Below are positions 11,394 to 56,603 of a stretch of DNA of 64,000 nt, piece after piece. Both the position numbers and the translations under genes were made by a program. The stretch comes from Escherichia coli (GTDB taxonomy: Bacteria > Pseudomonadota > Gammaproteobacteria > Enterobacterales > Enterobacteriaceae). Under the pieces are notes generated by a model. That model did no database searches. It was not told the DNA's origin and was given only the letters and a program-made list of their open reading frames with translations. Position 1 is the stretch's first letter; each line of letters begins with the position of its first letter. The stretch lies in the NCBI RefSeq assembly GCF_003334785.1, contig NZ_QOWV01000001.1; one strand, written 5' to 3'.

Positions 11394-13112
11394 TTACCTT
11401 AGCCAGTTTGTTTTCGCCAGTTCGATCACTTCATCACCGCGTCCGCTGATGATTGCGCGCAGCATATACAGGCTGAAACCTTTGGCCTGTTCGAGTTTGA
11501 TCTGCGGTGGAATGGCTAACTCTTCTTTGGCGACCACCACATCCACCAACACCGGACCGTCGATGGAGAAGGCGCGTTGCAGGGCTTCATCAACTTCAGA
11601 CGCTTTTTCTACACGGATACCCGTAATGCCGCACGCTTCGGCAATGCGGGCAAAGTTTGTGTCGTGTAGTTCGGTGCCGTCAGTCAAATAGCCACCAGCT
11701 TTCATCTCCATCGCCACAAAGCCCAGCACGCTGTTGTTAAAGACGACAATTTTCACTGGCAGTTTCATCTGCACTACTGAGAGGAAATCGCCCATCAACA
11801 TGCTAAAACCGCCATCGCCGCACATGGCGACCACCTGACGTTCTGGCTCTGTCGCCTGCGCACCCAGCGCCTGCGGCATGGCGTTAGCCATCGAACCGTG
11901 GTTAAACGAACCTAACAGGCGACGCTTGCCGTTCATTTTTAGATAACGTGCCGCCCACACCGTTGGCGTACCAACGTCACAGGTGAAAATAGCGTCATCG
12001 GCGGCAAAATGACTAATTTGCTGCGCCAGATATTGCGGGTGAATGGCTTTCTCGCTCGGTTTAGCTAAATCGTCCAGCCCTTTGCGGGCGTCGCGGTAAT
12101 CTTCCAGCGCTTTATCCAGAAACTTGCGATCGGCTTTTTCTTCCACCAATGGAAGCAATGCACGCAGAGTCGACTTGATATCGCCGACCAGTGCCATATC
12201 CACCTTGCTGTGAGCGCCGATGCTGGCTGGGTTGATATCAATCTGAATGATTTTGGCATCGGTCGGGTAGAAGGCGCGGTAGGGAAATTGCGTGCCGAGT
12301 AGCACTAACGTGTCGGCGTTCATCATGGTATGGAAACCTGACGAGAAGCCGATTAACCCGGTCATTCCAACATCATACGGATTATCGTATTCGACATGTT
12401 CTTTACCGCGCAGGGCATGAACAATAGGCGCTTTAATTTTCCCGGCAAACTCAACTAACTCTTTATGCGCCCCCGCGCAGCCGCTGCCACACATCAGGGC
12501 GATATTGCTGGAATAACGCAGCAGTTGCGCCAGTTTGCGTAACTCTTCTTCTTCCGGCGTCACGACTGGTTGTGGCGCATGATACCAGTGCATGGTTGCC
12601 CCTTCTGGCGCAGGTTTTAACGCCACGTCGCCTGGTAACACGACAACCGAAACGCCACGGTTAAGCACCGCTTTGCGCATGGCAATCGCCAGTACTTGTG
12701 GGATCTGCTCCGGGCTGGAAACCAGCTCGCAATAGTGACTACATTCGCGGAATAGCTCTTGTGGGTGGGTTTCCTGGAAATAGCCGCTGCCAATTTCGCT
12801 GGAGGGAATATGAGCGGCAATCGCCAGTACCGGAACGTGATTGCGGTGGCAATCGAACAGGCCGTTGATTAAGTGCAGGTTGCCGGGGCCGCACGATCCG
12901 GCGCAGACCGCCAGTTCTCCGCTAAGTTGTGCTTCAGCGCCAGCGGCAAAGGCCGCCACTTCTTCGTGGCGGGTGGACATCCACTCGATGGTGCCCATGC
13001 GATTAAGACTGTCACTAAGACCGTTCAGAGAGTCGCCTGTGACTCCCCAGATGCGTTTCACCCCTGCCGATTCGAGTGTTTTGGCGATATAAGCTGCAAC
13101 CGTTTGTTTCAT
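11394..13112 (-). CDS. poxB: pyruvate oxidase (ubiquinone) PoxB
   Basis: 572-aa thiamine-diphosphate/FAD enzyme. Confidence 0.95.
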
Positions 13113-13244
13113 GGTTCTCCATCTCCTGAATGTGATAACGGTAACAAGTTTAGTTCATCTGACGGAGGGGGAAGGGATGGGAGAGAAAGGAGGCACTAAC
13201 GGTTAAATAGCCCGATGAAAGGAATATCATCGGGCATAAGGCGA

Positions 13245-14213
13245 TTATGCGAGAACCAAATCCCCCTGCGGATGGCAGGAGCAGGCCAGTACGTAACCTT
13301 CAGCGATTTCGGCGTCGGTCAGCGTCATTGTGCTGCTCACCGTATATTCACCGGAAACCACTTTTGTCTTACAGCAGCCGCAAACACCCGCACGGCAGGC
13401 AGCGACAACCGGAACGTTATTGCTTTCCAGCGCCTCCAGTAGCGTGGTGCCAACCGGGGCGTAAAATTCTCGTGCCGGTTGCAGTTTGGTGAATTTCAGA
13501 CCGCTGGTCGCCGCTTCTGCTACTGGGGTGAAGAATTTCTCTTTAAAGAAACGCGTCACGCCGAGCGCTTTCACTTCCTGCTCTACCCAATCCATATACG
13601 GAGCCGGGCCGCAGGTCATCACGGTACGTGAAGCTAAGTCAGGTACACCTGCCAGCAGTTCGCGAGTGAGACGACCAGCGATAAAGCCTTCGGTAACGTT
13701 ATTTTCTGCCACCAGCGTTACCGGATAGTTACGCCACTCATCGGCGAAAATAACATCCTGCGGCGTACGCACGTTGTAGATCACCCGCACATCGGCCTGT
13801 GGACGGTTCTTCGCAAGCCAGCGACGCATCGACATAATCGGCGTGACGCCGCAGCCTGCCGCCAGCAACAGGAATTTATCTTCTGCTTTATCGTCGCAGG
13901 TAAATTCCCCCATCGCGTCCGAAAGCCAGAGATAATCACCGCGTTTTACATCGCGCGTCAGCCACTGGGAGCCGACACCGTCATCAATCCGCCGCACGGT
14001 CAGGGTGATATATTCACTCACGCCTGGCGTGGAGGAAATGGTGTAAGCACGCAGCGTTTCCGCTGAGTTTCGCACGCTGACCAGTGCATATTGCCCGGCG
14101 CGATATGGGTAGTAATCGTGGCAAATCAGGGAAATCGTCCACACATCCGGCGTTTCTTGCGTAATGTGATGAACCTGCATCCGCCACGGGCATTGATTCG
14201 TTGGCATCGTCAT
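13245..14213 (-). CDS. hcr: NADH oxidoreductase for hybrid-cluster protein Hcr
   Basis: 322 aa; FNR-type flavin reductase domain plus C-terminal 2Fe-2S ferredoxin Cys motif (CRAGVCGCC). Confidence 0.9.
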   Translation of the reverse strand: MTMPTNQCPWRMQVHHITQETPDVWTISLICHDYYPYRAGQYALVSVRNSAETLRAYTISSTPGVSEYITLTVRRIDDGVGSQWLTRDVKRGDYLWLSDAMGEFTCDDKAEDKFLLLAAGCGVTPIMSMRRWLAKNRPQADVRVIYNVRTPQDVIFADEWRNYPVTLVAENNVTEGFIAGRLTRELLAGVPDLASRTVMTCGPAPYMDWVEQEVKALGVTRFFKEKFFTPVAEAATSGLKFTKLQPAREFYAPVGTTLLEALESNNVPVVAACRAGVCGCCKTKVVSGEYTVSSTMTLTDAEIAEGYVLACSCHPQGDLVLA

Positions 14214-14224
14214 CGACAAACTCC

Positions 14225-15877
14225 TTACGCGCTCAACAGTTGCTTCATGTCTTCTTCAACAGTGGTGATAGAACGCAGGCCGAATTTCTCGTTCAGCACC
14301 GCCAGCAGGTCTGGTGTCAGGAAACCAGGTGCAGTCGGGCCGGTGACGATATTTTTCACGCCCAGAGAAAGCAGCGTCAGCAGAATGACGATCGCTTTCT
14401 GTTCAAACCAGGAGAGCACCAGCGACAGCGGCAGATCGTTGACACCGCAGCCCAGTTTCTCTGCCAGAGTGACAGCCAGAATAATCGCTGAGTAAGCATC
14501 GTTACATTGACCTGCATCTACCAGACGCGGCAGACCTTCGATATCGCCAAACTCAAGTTTGTTAAAGCGATATTTACCACAGGCGAGGGTCAGGATCAGG
14601 CAGTCATCCGGCACGCTGGTGGCGAAATCGGTGAAGTAGTGGCGCTCGCCGCGTGCGCCGTCACAGCCACCAAGCAGGAAGATATGACGCAGTTTTTCAC
14701 GGCTCACCAGATCAATCAGCGTATCAGCAGCGCCAAGCAGCGTCTGGCGACCAAAACCCACGGTGATAAGGTGCGGAATTTCGCTGTACGGGAAGCCTGC
14801 CATCTGTTGCGCCTGGGTGATAACCGCAGAGAAATCATCACCGTCCAGATGACGCACGCCAGGCCAGCCAACAATGCTGCGGGTCCAGATACGATCGTCA
14901 TAAGCGCCTACGGTTGGGTCGATGATGCAGTTCGAGGTCATCACGATGGGGCCAGGGAAACGAGCGAACTCCACTTGCTGATTCTGCCAGCCGCTGCCGT
15001 AGTTACCGACCAGATGCTTGAATTTACGCAGCTCCGGGTAGCCATGCGCAGGCAGCATTTCGCCGTGGGTGTAGACATTAACGCCCGTGCCTTCGGTCTG
15101 TTCCAGCAGGTTGTAGAGATCTTTGAGATCGTGACCGGAAATCAGAATGCATTTACCCGCCGTCGCTTTGACGTTGACCTGGGTTGGCGTCGGGTGACCG
15201 TATTTACCGGTTTCGCCTGCATCCAGAATGCTCATCACTTTGAAGTTCATCTGGCCGATTTCCATTGAACACTCAAGAAGCGCGTTCATATCGGCAGGCC
15301 AGGTCCCCAGCCACGCCATGATTTTATGGTACTGGGCATAAATATCGTTGTCGTATTGACCGAGAACATGCGCGTGTTCCATATAGGCCGCCGCACCTTT
15401 CAGGCCATACAGGCACAGCAGACGCAGGCCGAGAATGTTTTCGCCAATCGCCGCTTTATCTTTGTTAGGGGTAAATTCTGCTGCCTGACGTTGCAGCTCG
15501 CCGAGATCGTCGCTCACCAGTTGCAGGTCAGCCATCGGGTTATCGACGCGCGCGTTGGCATCTACAGCCAGGCATTGCGCTTTCAGCGCCTCGCGCAGGG
15601 CAATCGCTTCACGAGCGTAGCCGACAATACGCGGAGAATCGAAGTTAACGTTGGTCAGGGTTGAGAAAAAGGCACGTGGCGCGAAGCTGTCAACATCGTG
15701 GTTGATGATGCCGTATTCACGCGCTTTTACCGCCCAGGCAGAAAGCCCTTGCAGCGCCGCGATGAGTAAATCCTGAAGGTCAGAAGTTTCCGCCGTTTTA
15801 CCACACATCCCCTGCGCGTATGAGCAGCCGTTTCCTGCCGGAGTACGGATAGTTTGTTCACATTGCACACAAAACAT
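14225..15877 (-). CDS. hcp: hybrid-cluster protein (hydroxylamine reductase) Hcp
   Basis: 550 aa from MFCVQCEQT with N-terminal Cys cluster; co-oriented with hcr. Confidence 0.95.
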
Positions 15878-15973
15878 GATCACACCTTTTAAAGTTATAT
15901 TTAATATACATGTTTAAGGTTAAGACGCTTAACGCGGGGATAAAAGGGATTTTTCATGCAACTTTAAGGGAGA

Positions 15974-15987
15974 TTGATTTAGCGCAA
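15974..15987. promoter_or_regulatory. candidate FNR site upstream of hcp
   Basis: ttgat-ttag-cgcaa is an 8/10 match to TTGAT-N4-ATCAA about 95 bp upstream of the hcp start; hcp is a known anaerobically induced gene. Confidence 0.3.
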
Positions 15988-16020
15988 TTTTGGCGGCAGG
16001 GATCTACCGCCAGAGAGGTA

Positions 16021-16920
16021 TTACGCAGAGAAAAAGGCGATGAGGATCGGCACTAACAGGCTAAGAATAAAACCGTGAACAATTGCCGCCGGGACCATAT
16101 CCAGCCCGCCAGTACGTTGAAGAACGGGCAGGGTGAAATCCATTGATGTGGCACCGCATAAGCCCAGTGCAGTAGAGCGGCTGCGGCGAATCAGCCCAGG
16201 GATCAACATAATAGCAATCAGTTCACGGGCCAGATCATTAAAAAACGCCGCGCTCCCGATTACCGGACCAAAAGATTCGGTCAATAAAATACCGGAAAGA
16301 GAATACCAGCCGAAACCGGAGGCCATTGCCAGCGCGGTATTGATGGGGAGATCAAGAATAAAGGCGTTAATTAAACCACCAATTAATGAACTGACAACCA
16401 CCACCACGGCGACAATCATTCCCCGGCGATTAAGGACAATCTGCTTTAAGGTCATGCCATTATTGCGCAACTGAATACCAACGAGGAAAAGTAGCAAAAT
16501 TAACGTGTATTCACTGGCTTCGGTCGCGTGTTGTAAGAAAGCCAGTCCACTTAGACCAATGGCAAAACCAATCACTACTACGCCGCACAGTTTTAGCGAC
16601 TCCAGCGCCATCGCAATACGCGACGGGAGTTTTTCTTGCTGATGGTGGTTGCGCCACGGCAGGCCTCGCTCCAGCCACATCAGGGCGGCAATATTACACA
16701 GTAAAATAACGGTAATACTGACGGCAGAATAATGCAGAATCGCCAACAGGTTACTGGCGAGGTTATCGAGAAACGCCAGACTGATACCCATAAAAAAGAG
16801 AATAAGGTAAACCATCCAGCTTAATAGCTGATTAATAACTTTTAACGCAGCTTGTTGGCGAAGCGGAATGAGGTAACCCACAATCAGGGGAACCAGAATG
16901 ATTAACAGCCCAGAAAACAT
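16021..16920 (-). CDS. ybjE: L-lysine exporter LysO (YbjE)
   Basis: 299-aa polytopic membrane protein from MFSGLLIILVPL. Confidence 0.85.
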   Translation of the reverse strand: MFSGLLIILVPLIVGYLIPLRQQAALKVINQLLSWMVYLILFFMGISLAFLDNLASNLLAILHYSAVSITVILLCNIAALMWLERGLPWRNHHQQEKLPSRIAMALESLKLCGVVVIGFAIGLSGLAFLQHATEASEYTLILLLFLVGIQLRNNGMTLKQIVLNRRGMIVAVVVVVSSLIGGLINAFILDLPINTALAMASGFGWYSLSGILLTESFGPVIGSAAFFNDLARELIAIMLIPGLIRRSRSTALGLCGATSMDFTLPVLQRTGGLDMVPAAIVHGFILSLLVPILIAFFSA

Positions 16921-17094
16921 GAAAACCCAGTCCTTGCAAAGATGAAGTCGAAATGCGCGATGACACACTACTGAAAGCGGAAGGACGAGTAAAGTTGCAA
17001 TTAAAAGGAAATGTTATGCATAAGGAGCAGTAGAGTATTCGTTTTCATTTAAAGATATTCTTGCGCTTTAATTACAAACTGCACCGATGTTGGT

Positions 17095-17300
17095 GGCGTC
17101 AAAATCGCCGAGGCGTTCCCTGAAGGCCGGGGCAGCCCACATGGATGTGGGCTGAGGGCGCGTTTTACAGGGATGTTACCTCGCGCCCGACCCGGTAGCC
17201 GTAAGGGATAAGTCGAGGGCACCGCGCAGCGGCGATTTTGTTCGCCAGAGCCCGGGGGTGCAGGGGGCGGCGGCGATTGGCCGCCCCCTGCGCGCTCCTT
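17095..17300. repeat. GC-rich cluster of nested perfect and imperfect palindromes (unclassified)
   Basis: perfect 10-bp-arm inverted repeats at 17133-17154 and 17261-17290, a 7-bp-arm pair gggcgcg/cgcgccc, and an outer imperfect pair 17095-17115/17225-17246, embedded in AT-rich intergenic DNA. Confidence 0.5.
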
Positions 17301-17375
17301 GCGCCAGTGGCAATATGTTGCTTAGCTCATGAAAGGAGCGCAACAAGATGATGAATCAACATATAACAACATCTT

Positions 17376-17405
17376 AAAAAAAGGCCTGACATTACGCCAG
17401 GCCTT
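17376..17405 (-). terminator. rho-independent terminator downstream of aqpZ
   Basis: aaggcctg-loop-caggcctt stem followed by a U-run on the minus strand. Confidence 0.65.
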
Positions 17406-17414
17406 CTGCGTTAA

Positions 17415-18110
17415 TTAATCACGCTTTTCCAGCAGGGTCCGGTAAATCAGACCACCGATAATGCCGCCGACAATTGGCACCACCCAGAAGAACCACAGTT
17501 GTTCTAATGCCCAGCCGCCCTGGAAGATAGCAACCGCGGTGCTGCGCGCCGGGTTAACAGAAGTGTTAGTCACCGGAATACTAATTAAGTGAATCAGGGT
17601 TAAGGCCAGACCAATAGCGATCGGCGCAAAACCTGCCGGCGCGAATTTGTCGGTTGCGCCGTGGATCACCAACAGGAAACCTGCACTCAATACCAGTTCA
17701 ACTACCAGCGCGGAAAGCATGGAATAACCGCCTGGTGAATGCTCGCCATAACCGTTAGAAGCAAAACCGCTGGCTGCCGCGTCAAAACCCGTTTTACCAC
17801 TGGCAATTAAATACAGCAGCGCCGCTGCAACAATACCGCCGACAACCTGGGCAATTACGTAGCCAACGACTTCTTTTGCCGGAAAACGTCCGCCAGCCCA
17901 TAAACCAATAGTGACCGCCGGGTTAAAATGACCACCAGAAATATGACCAACAGCAAAGGCCATCGTCAGAACGGTCAGACCGAACGCCAACGCCACGCCG
18001 GCAAAACCAATGCCTAATTCCGGGAAGCCTGCGGCCAGTACAGCACTACCACAGCCACCAAAAACAAGCCAGAAAGTACCAAAACATTCAGCTGCTAATT
18101 TTCTGAACAT
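17415..18110 (-). CDS. aqpZ: aquaporin Z
   Basis: 231-aa MIP-family channel with two NPA motifs (GGHFNPAVT and NPARS). Confidence 0.95.
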
Positions 18111-18535
18111 ATCCACCTCAATTAAAAATTGACCCTGTGAAAAATATGGTCGTTTTATAGGGTCGTCGTAAAAAAGTGACGACGGAAATAATGCGCGGCT
18201 ATTTTAAAAACGAAGGCGAGTCATTCACCAGATAAATAAATCCAGTAAATTTGATTTAGGGCAACAGCGGGTTGCCCCATATAGTCATTTGTCTGATTGA
18301 CAGTGTAGTGCACGCAAAAGATTTAATCCTTTAGGCGTAATAAAAAATAATTTATCATGCTAATTATTTGATTTTGTTGTTTTTGCAGACTTATCAGCAA
18401 GAGGGAGTATAACGCGATTATTCGCTCATTTTTCAGACATTTGCCATGCTTAAATGTGATGTCATCACGTATTAGCAAGGCCTTTCCCGTTATACTGCCA
18501 GCGTAAAGGATAAGTCACATATTTCTGGAGGGGAT

Positions 18536-20194
18536 ATGATTCTTGAGCGCGTTGAAATTGTGGGTTTTCGCGGTATCAACCGTTTGTCGTTGATGCTGGA
18601 ACAAAACAACGTCCTGATTGGGGAGAACGCGTGGGGTAAATCCAGCTTGCTGGACGCCTTAACTCTGCTGCTATCGCCAGAATCAGATCTCTACCATTTT
18701 GAGCGCGACGATTTCTGGTTCCCGCCGGGAGATATCAACGGGCGAGAACATCATCTGCATATTATTTTGACCTTCCGCGAATCGCTGCCAGGCCGACATC
18801 GGGTTCGCCGTTATCGGCCGCTGGAAGCGTGCTGGACGCCATGCACCGATGGCTATCACCGTATTTTTTATCGTCTGGAAGGGGAGAGTGCGGAAGACGG
18901 CAGCGTGATGACACTGCGCAGTTTTCTCGATAAAGACGGACATCCGATTGATGTCGAGGATATTAACGATCAGGCACGCCATCTGGTGCGTTTAATGCCG
19001 GTGCTGCGCTTGCGTGATGCCCGTTTTATGCGCCGTATTCGTAACGGCACGGTGCCAAATGTCCCTAATGTGGAAGTCACCGCGCGCCAGCTCGATTTCC
19101 TCGCCCGTGAGTTATCCTCACATCCGCAAAATCTCTCTGATGGGCAGATTCGTCAGGGACTTTCCGCAATGGTACAGCTGCTTGAGCATTATTTCTCTGA
19201 GCAGGGGGCCGGACAGGCGCGATATCGTTTAATGCGGCGGCGAGCCAGCAATGAGCAACGAAGCTGGCGCTATCTGGATATCATCAACCGGATGATTGAC
19301 CGACCTGGTGGGCGCTCGTATCGGGTTATTTTGCTCGGCCTATTTGCTACTTTGTTGCAGGCAAAAGGCACATTGCGACTGGATAAAGACGCCCGTCCAT
19401 TGTTGCTGATCGAAGATCCAGAAACCCGTTTACACCCCATTATGCTTTCAGTTGCCTGGCATCTGTTGAATCTTCTGCCATTGCAGCGCATTGCCACCAC
19501 CAACTCGGGTGAGTTGCTTTCGTTAACGCCGGTAGAGCATGTTTGCCGACTGGTACGTGAGTCCTCGCGCGTTGCCGCCTGGCGTCTGGGGCCGAGTGGC
19601 TTGAGTACCGAAGATAGCCGACGCATATCCTTTCACATTCGTTTTAACCGTCCGTCATCGCTGTTTGCACGCTGCTGGTTGCTGGTGGAAGGGGAAACGG
19701 AAACCTGGGTTATCAATGAACTGGCGCGTCAGTGCGGACATCATTTTGATGCCGAAGGGATCAAGGTCATTGAGTTTGCCCAGTCCGGGCTAAAGCCACT
19801 GGTTAAATTTGCCCGCCGAATGGGGATTGAATGGCATGTACTGGTCGATGGCGATGAAGCAGGGAAGAAATATGCCGCTACGGTACGCAGCCTGTTGAAT
19901 AACGATCGGGAAGCCGAACGAGAACATTTAACGGCGTTACCGGCGCTGGATATGGAACATTTTATGTATCGCCAGGGATTTTCCGATGTGTTCCACCGCA
20001 TGGCGCAAATCCCGGAAAATGTACCGATGAATCTACGCAAAATTATCTCGAAAGCGATCCATCGCTCTTCCAAACCCGATCTTGCCATTGAAGTGGCAAT
20101 GGAGGCAGGACGTCGTGGTGTGGACTCCGTACCGACGCTGCTGAAAAAAATGTTCTCACGCGTGCTGTGGCTGGCGCGCGGTCGCGCGGATTAA
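18536..20194 (+). CDS. ybjD: OLD-family ATPase-Toprim protein YbjD
   Basis: 552 aa; N-terminal P-loop GENAWGKSS, Walker-B-like LLLIEDPE, C-terminal Toprim-like E (LLVEGETE) and DxD (VLVDGDEAG). Confidence 0.85.
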   Translation: MILERVEIVGFRGINRLSLMLEQNNVLIGENAWGKSSLLDALTLLLSPESDLYHFERDDFWFPPGDINGREHHLHIILTFRESLPGRHRVRRYRPLEACWTPCTDGYHRIFYRLEGESAEDGSVMTLRSFLDKDGHPIDVEDINDQARHLVRLMPVLRLRDARFMRRIRNGTVPNVPNVEVTARQLDFLARELSSHPQNLSDGQIRQGLSAMVQLLEHYFSEQGAGQARYRLMRRRASNEQRSWRYLDIINRMIDRPGGRSYRVILLGLFATLLQAKGTLRLDKDARPLLLIEDPETRLHPIMLSVAWHLLNLLPLQRIATTNSGELLSLTPVEHVCRLVRESSRVAAWRLGPSGLSTEDSRRISFHIRFNRPSSLFARCWLLVEGETETWVINELARQCGHHFDAEGIKVIEFAQSGLKPLVKFARRMGIEWHVLVDGDEAGKKYAATVRSLLNNDREAEREHLTALPALDMEHFMYRQGFSDVFHRMAQIPENVPMNLRKIISKAIHRSSKPDLAIEVAMEAGRRGVDSVPTLLKKMFSRVLWLARGRAD

Positions 20195-21297: not shown

Positions 21298-22413
21298 ATG
21301 AAAAAGCGGAAAACCGTGAAGAAGCGTTACGTTATTGCGCTGGTGATAGTCATCGCCGGACTGATTACGTTATGGAGAATTCTTAACGCACCCGTGCCGA
21401 CTTATCAGACGCTGATTGTGCGCCCCGGTGATTTACAGCAAAGCGTGCTGGCGACCGGAAAGCTGGACGCGCTGCGTAAGGTTGATGTGGGCGCGCAGGT
21501 CAGCGGTCAGTTGAAAACTCTGTCGGTGGCGATTGGCGATAAAGTAAAAAAAGACCAGCTTTTAGGGGTTATTGATCCTGAACAGGCTGAAAACCAGATT
21601 AAGGAGGTCGAAGCAACGCTGATGGAGCTACGTGCGCAGCGGCAGCAGGCGGAAGCGGAGCTGAAACTGGCGCGGGTGACGTATTCCCGTCAGCAACGTC
21701 TGGCACAAACGAAGGCTGTTTCACAGCAGGATCTCGACACCGCCGCGACGGAGATGGCTGTGAAACAGGCGCAAATTGGCACCATTGACGCGCAAATCAA
21801 GCGCAATCAGGCTTCTCTCGATACGGCTAAAACCAATCTCGATTACACTCGCATCGTTGCCCCGATGGCCGGGGAAGTCACGCAAATCACCACTCTGCAA
21901 GGCCAGACGGTGATTGCCGCACAACAAGCACCGAACATTCTGACGCTGGCAGATATGAGCACCATGCTGGTAAAAGCGCAGGTTTCTGAAGCGGATGTAA
22001 TCCACCTGAAGCCGGGGCAAAAAGCCTGGTTTACGGTGCTTGGCGATCCACTGACGCGCTACGAGGGGCAAATCAAGGATGTACTACCGACGCCGGAAAA
22101 GGTTAACGACGCTATTTTCTATTACGCCCGTTTTGAAGTCCCCAACCCCAATGGTTTGCTGCGGCTGGATATGACTGCGCAAGTGCATATTCAGCTCACC
22201 GATGTGAAAAATGTGCTGACGATCCCTCTGTCGGCGTTAGGCGATCCGGTTGGCGATAATCGTTATAAAGTCAAATTGTTGCGTAATGGTGAAACACGCG
22301 AGCGTGAAGTGACGATTGGCGCACGTAACGATACCGATGTTGAGATTGTCAAAGGGCTTGAAGCGGGCGATGAAGTGGTGATTGGTGAGGCCAAACCAGG
22401 AGCTGCACAATGA
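21298..22413 (+). CDS. macA: macrolide efflux periplasmic adaptor MacA
   Basis: 371 aa from [18 protein letters not shown]; membrane-fusion-protein coiled-coil and barrel regions; stop overlaps macB start. Confidence 0.9.
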
Positions 22414-24975: not shown

Positions 24976-25296
24976 ATGGGTAAAACGAACGACTGGCTGG
25001 ACTTTGATCAACTGGCGGAAGAAAAAGTTCGCGACGCGCTAAAACCGCCATCTATGTATAAAGTGATATTAGTCAATGATGATTACACTCCGATGGAGTT
25101 TGTTATTGACGTGTTACAAAAATTCTTTTCTTATGATGTAGAACGTGCAACGCAATTGATGCTCGCTGTTCACTACCAGGGGAAGGCCATTTGCGGAGTC
25201 TTTACCGCCGAGGTTGCAGAAACCAAAGTGGCGATGGTGAACAAGTACGCGAGGGAGAATGAGCATCCATTGCTGTGTACGCTAGAAAAAGCCTGA
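24976..25296 (+). CDS. clpS: ClpA adaptor protein ClpS
   Basis: 106-aa ORF immediately upstream of clpA. Confidence 0.95.
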
Positions 25297-34230: not shown

Positions 34231-34657
34231 TCAAATTCTCCCGTCATTATCACCTCTGCTACTTAAATTTCCCGCTTTATAAGCCGATTAAATGATGAAT
34301 AAACGCCCCTGTTAATGAATATCTGGCATGTTGTACTAAAAATCGATGTTTTGCTTTGACAATCCCCTGGTGTTTTGCGAAAACATTCGAGGAAGAAAAA
34401 AAACAGTATTCTTATATGCGCATAACCATGCATGTAAATACCATGTTTACCGTGCTAGTGAAATCTACGTATGGCGTGGACAGACGCCATTCGTGATGTC
34501 GATAGCTGCCACAAGGCAACGGTCTTCTCACCGTAGACCCAGGCATTGCGCGCCGTGAATCTTCATGATTTCGGTCTATCGTGACGGGTAGCGACTCTGA
34601 ACAGTGATGTTTCAGGGTCAGACAGGAGTAGGGAAGGAATACAGAGAGACAATAATA

Positions 34658-56589: not shown

Positions 56590-56603
56590 TTGATATAGAT
56601 CAT
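56590..56603. promoter_or_regulatory. candidate FNR site in focA-pflB promoter region
   Basis: ttgat-atag-atcat is a 9/10 match to TTGAT-N4-ATCAA about 60 bp upstream of the focA start. Confidence 0.45.

Follow-up and report, generated by a model that had tools for sequence, protein, structure and literature searches.

Genomic context of the hcp control region

The window, by which we mean the whole 64-kb stretch of DNA analysed here, is Escherichia coli chromosome with the gene order poxB-hcr-hcp-lysO(ybjE)-aqpZ-ybjD, as given by the RefSeq annotation of an identical genome. Queried with 701 bp around the hcp promoter, many E. coli chromosomes show 100% identity, and the sequence occurs in 5425 of 5426 complete genomes. 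The 143-bp lysO-hcp intergenic stretch alone retains at least 95% identity in all of these. Downstream of this stretch lie the two genes of the operon:

14225–15877, minus strand: hcp coding sequence, ATG at 15877; hybrid cluster protein (RefSeq: hcp, hydroxylamine reductase)
13245–14213, minus strand: hcr coding sequence, second operon gene, encoding the NADH oxidoreductase partner of Hcp (RefSeq annotation mapped from an identical genome)

Translation from 15877 confirmed the N-terminus of Hcp, which is a high-affinity NO reductase (PMC9052748). Because the lysO stop codon occupies 16021–16023, the entire control region of hcp is confined to 15878–16020.

The AT-rich dyad as the NsrR operator of hcp

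A preliminary description of this DNA had pointed to an AT-rich imperfect inverted repeat near 15893–15918 that resembles NsrR-type operators. The dyad is present, but its coordinates were offset by one base: the string aagttatatttaatatacatgtttaa occupies 15892–15917, where it forms an imperfect inverted repeat of 88% A+T. A repeat search delineated arms at 15884–15901 and 15903–15920 with 72% complementarity. In the published 11-1-11 register (15892–15914, axis at 15903), 7 of the 11 positions are symmetric. This register defines the following feature:

15892–15914, no strand: NsrR operator, 11-1-11 imperfect inverted repeat, AAGTTATATTTAATATACATGTT; centre 15903

Its halves read AAGTTATATTT-A-ATATACATGTT on the plus strand and AACATGTATAT-T-AAATATAACTT in the sense of hcp. 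Compared with this 23-bp operator, the 26-bp string first quoted carries three extra bases at its high-coordinate end. The suspected resemblance to NsrR-type operators proved to be an identity, as the 23-mer AAGTTATATTTAATATACATGTT is letter for letter the hcp NsrR site listed in PMC5320621 Table 4.

We scored the window with a symmetrised matrix built from 25 distinct published 11-1-11 sites (PMC5320621 Table 4), leaving the hcp site out. Scoring against published NsrR and FNR sites had been suggested in the preliminary description as a check; it returned 25.7 bits for the dyad and 13.4 bits for the FNR site described below. The value of 25.7 bits at 15892–15914 is the highest in the 64-kb window and exceeds that of 24 of the 25 training sites. 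It was equalled in one of 500 random Markov-1 sequences of 64 kb and in none of 2000 random 143-bp sequences of the intergenic composition. A search with the idealised NsrR palindrome, allowing up to three mismatches, found no match. Since the real hcp site carries six mismatches, consensus matching is too strict for NsrR and a matrix is needed.

The published record for this site is extensive. In strain CFT073, the hcp NsrR site is ChIP-seq positive, and its PatSer ln P of -23.87 is second only to that of ytfE genome-wide; the NsrR ChIP-seq summit is found 22 bp upstream of the hcp start codon, and nitrate induces hcp 44-fold (PMC5320621). The NsrR motif was first derived from aligned enterobacterial hcp upstream regions (Rodionov 2005, PMC1274295), and Phcp::lacZ serves as an NsrR-dependent reporter of cytoplasmic NO (PMC9052748). 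Loss of hcp repression in an nsrR single mutant is attributed to Filenko 2007 in the literature that cites it. These data support the identification of the AT-rich dyad at 15892–15914 as the known NsrR operator of hcp.

The dyad could also be bound mainly by another protein, such as an IscR-like Rrf2 regulator or an AT-preferring nucleoid protein, with NsrR in a secondary role. Rrf2 regulators bind related AT-rich palindromes, and H-NS, Fis and IHF are attracted by AT-rich DNA. Against this, the hcp site outscores all but one of the 25 bona fide NsrR sites on the NsrR matrix, and it is NsrR ChIP-seq positive in a gene that responds to NO sources (PMC5320621). In addition, Myers 2013 gives "None" for Fis, H-NS and IHF enrichment at the predicted FNR site of hcp, which lies some 78 bp upstream of the dyad. 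Binding mainly by a protein other than NsrR is thus very improbable.

Two further NsrR matches were observed elsewhere in the window. The 23-mer ATGTTGTACTAAAAATCGATGTT at 34328–34350 reproduces exactly the NsrR site that PMC5320621 Table 4 lists upstream of trxB. At 16992–17014, about 70–95 bp upstream of the annotated lysO start, the NsrR-like 23-mer AAGTTGCAATTAAAAGGAAATGT scores 15.7 bits, third in the window, and has one good half-site. It is absent from the PMC5320621 site list and may be a chance match.

The FNR site of hcp-hcr

An FNR-like 14-mer had been placed at 15974–15987 in the preliminary description, and TTGATTTAGCGCAA lies exactly there. Its reading as an FNR site holds as well, since the 14-mer agrees letter for letter with the hcp FNR site of Myers 2013 Table S6:

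15974–15987, no strand: FNR site, TTGATTTAGCGCAA on the plus strand and TTGCGCTAAATCAA in the sense of hcp; centre 15980.5, reported at -72.5

The site combines one consensus half with one degenerate half (TTGCG instead of TTGAT) and fits the FNR consensus at 8 of 10 positions. With 44 occurrences in the window and 33 expected, sequences within two mismatches of this consensus show no significant enrichment. On a matrix built from the 62 ChIP-positive sites of Myers 2013 Table S6, with hcp left out, TTGATTTAGCGCAA reaches 13.4 bits, which ranks fourth in the window and falls at about the 10th percentile of real sites; roughly 1.2 matches of this strength are expected per random 64 kb. The score is weak by itself, and the reality of the site therefore rests on its position, its conservation and published ChIP data. 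In Myers 2013, the hcp site is ChIP-seq positive (Table S6) and is placed at -72.5 (Table 1, main text), and hcp-hcr is classed as FNR-activated with reference to Filenko 2005. A conserved FNR box in enterobacterial hcp upstream regions was noted by Rodionov 2005 (PMC1274295). This body of evidence supports the assignment of TTGATTTAGCGCAA at 15974–15987 as the known FNR site of hcp-hcr.

Other FNR matches in the window include two published sites. The best, TTGATATAGATCAT at 56590–56603 (17.1 bits), is the published focA-pflB FNR site. Between aqpZ and ybjD, the intergenic sequence TTGATTTAGGGCAA at 18251–18264 shares all but one base with the FNR site of hcp and is the ChIP-seq-positive FNR site "aqpZ/ybjD" of Myers 2013 Table S6; a NarL-like 7-2-7 match lies near it, at 18324–18339. 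Two more sequences, GTGATATTAGTCAA at 25063–25076 (13.4 bits) and GTGATTTACAGCAA at 21428–21441 (12.5 bits), score on a par with the hcp site.

Both sites are conserved across Enterobacterales

We scanned GTDB species representatives with a DNA pattern for the conserved hcp start, which yielded 120 loci, among them 52 Enterobacterales species with enough upstream sequence for footprinting. All 52 carry an NsrR site scoring 20 bits or more (median 26.0), in 25 sequence variants, whose centre falls 23–30 nt ahead of the start codon of hcp. In 50 of these species, an FNR site with a score of 11 bits or more lies 72.5–83.5 bp upstream of the NsrR centre; in 27 species the spacing is exactly 77.5 bp, as in the window. 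Column conservation, defined as the fraction of sequences carrying the majority base in a MAFFT alignment, is 0.95 for the FNR site and 0.88 for the NsrR site, compared with 0.51 for the spacer between the -35 and -10 regions. No block of the intergenic region is better conserved than the FNR site, whose degenerate TTGCG half is itself kept across genera. The DNA between the two sites drifts while both sites persist.

These patterns bear on two further readings. With 8 of 10 consensus positions and 44 matches against 33 expected in the window, TTGATTTAGCGCAA might match FNR by chance, or belong to a different CRP/FNR-family protein, without serving as a functional FNR site. However, it forms the top-conserved intergenic block (0.95), near-invariant across Enterobacterales and kept at a constant spacing to the NsrR site, and it is FNR ChIP-seq positive upstream of an operon whose expression depends on FNR (Myers 2013). 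We consider a non-functional or differently bound site highly unlikely. Similarly, the dyad could be mere core-promoter or leader DNA whose symmetry arose by chance and has no operator role, given that imperfect palindromes are common in DNA of 88% A+T and that the published register has only 7 symmetric positions out of 11. Yet none of the 2000 random sequences of equal composition reached 25.7 bits, the site holds the same place in 52 of 52 species, its 25 variants all score highly while the neighbouring spacer drifts, and a published NsrR ChIP-seq peak lies over it (PMC5320621). The likelihood of mere chance symmetry is therefore close to nil.

Outside Enterobacterales the arrangement differs. 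Vibrionaceae hcp promoters (L002 and other Vibrio loci) mostly have neither site, which matches the NorR2 control described for this family in Rodionov 2005 (PMC1274295). Aeromonas hcp promoters (L022, L028, L050 and others) carry a near-perfect FNR box, TTGATCTGCATCAA, of 18.9 bits about 108 bp before the ATG, and a matrix scan of their upstream regions found no strong NsrR site. Shewanella hcp promoters keep a weaker NsrR-like site. This distribution indicates that the wiring of hcp to its regulators differs among gamma-proteobacterial families, as Rodionov 2005 described.

Deduced transcript start and probable core promoter

The reported FNR position allows the transcript start to be deduced, and with it a putative core promoter:

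15908, minus strand: deduced hcp-hcr +1, by arithmetic from the FNR centre (15980.5) minus the published 72.5; accurate to about 1 base
15915–15922, minus strand: probable -10 region, TAACCTTA in the sense of hcp; TAACCT (15917–15922) fits TAnnnT
15941–15948, minus strand: CCTTTT block, putative -35 region; conservation 0.75, compared with 0.51 in the adjacent spacer

The segment 15915–15922 is probably the -10 element: it lies where one is expected from the deduced +1, and the 52-species alignment shows a conserved T at 15922 and a conserved CTTA block. The CCTTTT block is a candidate part of the -35 region and fits the -35 consensus poorly. If +1 is at 15908, the NsrR operator spans about -6 to +17, with its centre near +6, and abuts the putative -10 element; that centre lies 26 nt before the hcp ATG. 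Chismon and colleagues are said to have placed, in 2010, the hcp NsrR site at +6 and a NarL/NarP site at -104.5.

A scan of 15800–16100 for sigma-70 promoters and terminators gave no matches, and the absence of a sigma-70 consensus promoter is expected for an activator-dependent promoter. In Myers 2013, hcp showed no peak in sigma-70 ChIP, and its promoter was assigned to sigma-E with reference to Rhodius 2006. In the main text of Rhodius 2006, hcp was not found, and inspection by eye revealed no sigma-E-like -35/-10 pair upstream of hcp. NsrR repression in the nitrite-free medium used by Myers and colleagues may be an alternative reason for the missing sigma-70 peak.

The remaining reading, in which the dyad forms an RNA hairpin within the 5' leader of hcp and controls translation or mRNA stability instead of serving as a DNA operator, agrees with the location of the dyad 15–40 nt before the ATG, near the Shine-Dalgarno sequence, but was rejected as practically excluded, because the minus-strand fold of 15870–15925 (-5 kcal/mol, z = 0.04 against shuffles) is no stabler than random, a +1 near 15908 leaves the upstream arm, half of the dyad, untranscribed from the hcp promoter, and no Rfam family matches the promoter in a scan of 13000–19000. 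The sole match in that scan was a sub-threshold hit to TwoAYGGAY at 17099–17238 on the plus strand, between lysO and aqpZ (30.6 bits against a gathering threshold of 43, E = 0.086), which is probably due to chance.

Possible additional elements upstream of the core promoter

Two further candidate elements are found within the 143 bp:

16005–16020, no strand: NarL/NarP-like 7-2-7 inverted heptamers, TACCTCT-CT-GGCGGTA in the sense of hcp; two mismatches to TACYYMTNNAKRRGTA
15954–15964, minus strand: upstream NsrR-like half-site, AAGTTGCATGA; centre about -51, between the FNR site and the -35 region

The NarL/NarP-like pair is centred at 16012.5, 32 bp upstream of the FNR centre, which by arithmetic corresponds to -104.5. 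Induction of hcp is NarL/NarP-dependent (PMC1274295). The pattern of two inverted TACYYMT heptamers 2 bp apart occurs three times in the window against 2.6 expected, no excess over chance. Conservation of the pair is seen in Enterobacteriaceae but does not extend to Yersinia, Serratia or Pectobacterium; the pair also overlaps a conserved hairpin, which could be an alternative cause of that conservation.

The half-site AAGTTGCATGA scores 9.5 bits, and its parent 23-mer (15942–15964) scores 18.0 bits, the second-best NsrR match in the window. A near-identical half-site upstream of CFT073 hcp is tabled as a "possible NsrR site" (PMC5320621 Table 2). Its conservation is patchy, with at least 8 bits in 10 of 47 species; the genera that keep it include Yersinia, Pectobacterium, Brenneria and Kluyvera.

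The hairpin is a 9-bp stem-loop at 15991–16012, read in minus-strand RNA as UGGCGGUAG-AUCC-CUGCCGCCA and lying about 9 nt after the lysO stop codon. It folds with -16.5 kcal/mol (z = -5.6) and is followed by AAAAUU, without a U-tract. Across Enterobacteriaceae the stem-loop is maintained with loops that vary; 96% of cells are paired, and one pair shows a compensatory change from G-C to C-G. Its 5' arm is the promoter-proximal NarL/NarP-like heptamer GGCGGTA. The stem-loop may serve as a 3'-end element of lysO; read-through from lysO into hcp is also conceivable.

These elements raise the prospect that the hcp region holds more than the known sites. The half-site would then be a second operator that hinders contact between FNR and RNA polymerase, and the stem-loop would link the formation of the lysO 3' end, or read-through into hcp, to nitrate-responsive activation. 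At present, we regard this extended arrangement as unlikely.

A model for signal integration at the hcp-hcr promoter

Sequence identity with the published sites, the matrix scores, and the conserved place and spacing of both sites across Enterobacterales were observed directly here. In vivo binding, the -72.5 position and NsrR repression are taken from published work (PMC5320621; Myers 2013; PMC9052748). From these combined lines, we conclude with a probability of about 0.95 that the 143 bp at 15878–16020 are the hcp-hcr promoter, which integrates anaerobiosis, nitrate/nitrite and nitric oxide signals.

In our model, FNR, which is active without oxygen, would bind the half-degenerate site at 15974–15987 under anaerobiosis and activate RNA polymerase from -72.5 in a class-I-type arrangement. 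In response to nitrate or nitrite, NarL/NarP would probably bind the heptamers at 16005–16020 and add to the induction. For nitric oxide, a [4Fe-4S] NsrR dimer would occupy 15892–15914, over the transcript start and adjoining the -10 element. As this operator covers about -6 to +17, NsrR would exclude or trap RNA polymerase. NO would then nitrosylate the NsrR cluster and release NsrR from the DNA, so that the FNR-activated promoter could fire. We infer the exact +1, the -10 and -35 elements and the steric nature of the repression from the layout of the sites.

Comparison with known systems

Both hcp promoter motifs are already known in detail. The discovery value of the locus is small, as hcp-hcr is among the best-studied nitrosative-stress promoters; its use lies in calibration, since two real regulatory sites were recognised from sequence alone, and hcp-free matrices together with a 52-species footprint recover both. 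A 2026 bioRxiv paper on an "hcp promoter" was set aside, as it concerns Bacteroides HcpR and is irrelevant to E. coli hcp.

The closest known system is the hcp-hcr promoter of K-12 and CFT073 itself (Filenko 2005, 2007; Chismon 2010; Partridge 2009; Myers 2013; PMC5320621). Both site sequences are identical, and the lysO-hcp-hcr context and the geometry are shared, with FNR at -72.5, the centre of the NsrR operator 26 nt before the ATG and the ChIP summit at -22. The CFT073 half-site reads AAGTTGCATTA, compared with AAGTTGCATGA here; otherwise there is no substantive difference.

The NsrR operators of ytfE and hmp (consensus AAGATGCATTT-N-AAATGCATCTT) have the same 23-bp 11-1-11 build as the hcp site and share with it the outer AA/TT and the inner ATTT/AAAT. 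In comparison with them, the hcp site is more AT-rich, with TTATA/TATAC replacing ATGCA and six mismatches to the idealised palindrome. Unlike the ytfE and hmp operators, it would lie over the transcript start of an FNR-activated promoter.

On the FNR side, ackA (-74.5) and ydjX (-60.5) provide upstream sites of class I type, in which a TTGAT-N4-ATCAA-type sequence lies about 70 bp upstream of +1, as at hcp, whereas class II sites are commonly at -41.5. The hcp promoter differs from those of ackA and ydjX in its degenerate FNR half and in the addition of a repressor gate downstream and a candidate NarL/NarP-type site upstream.
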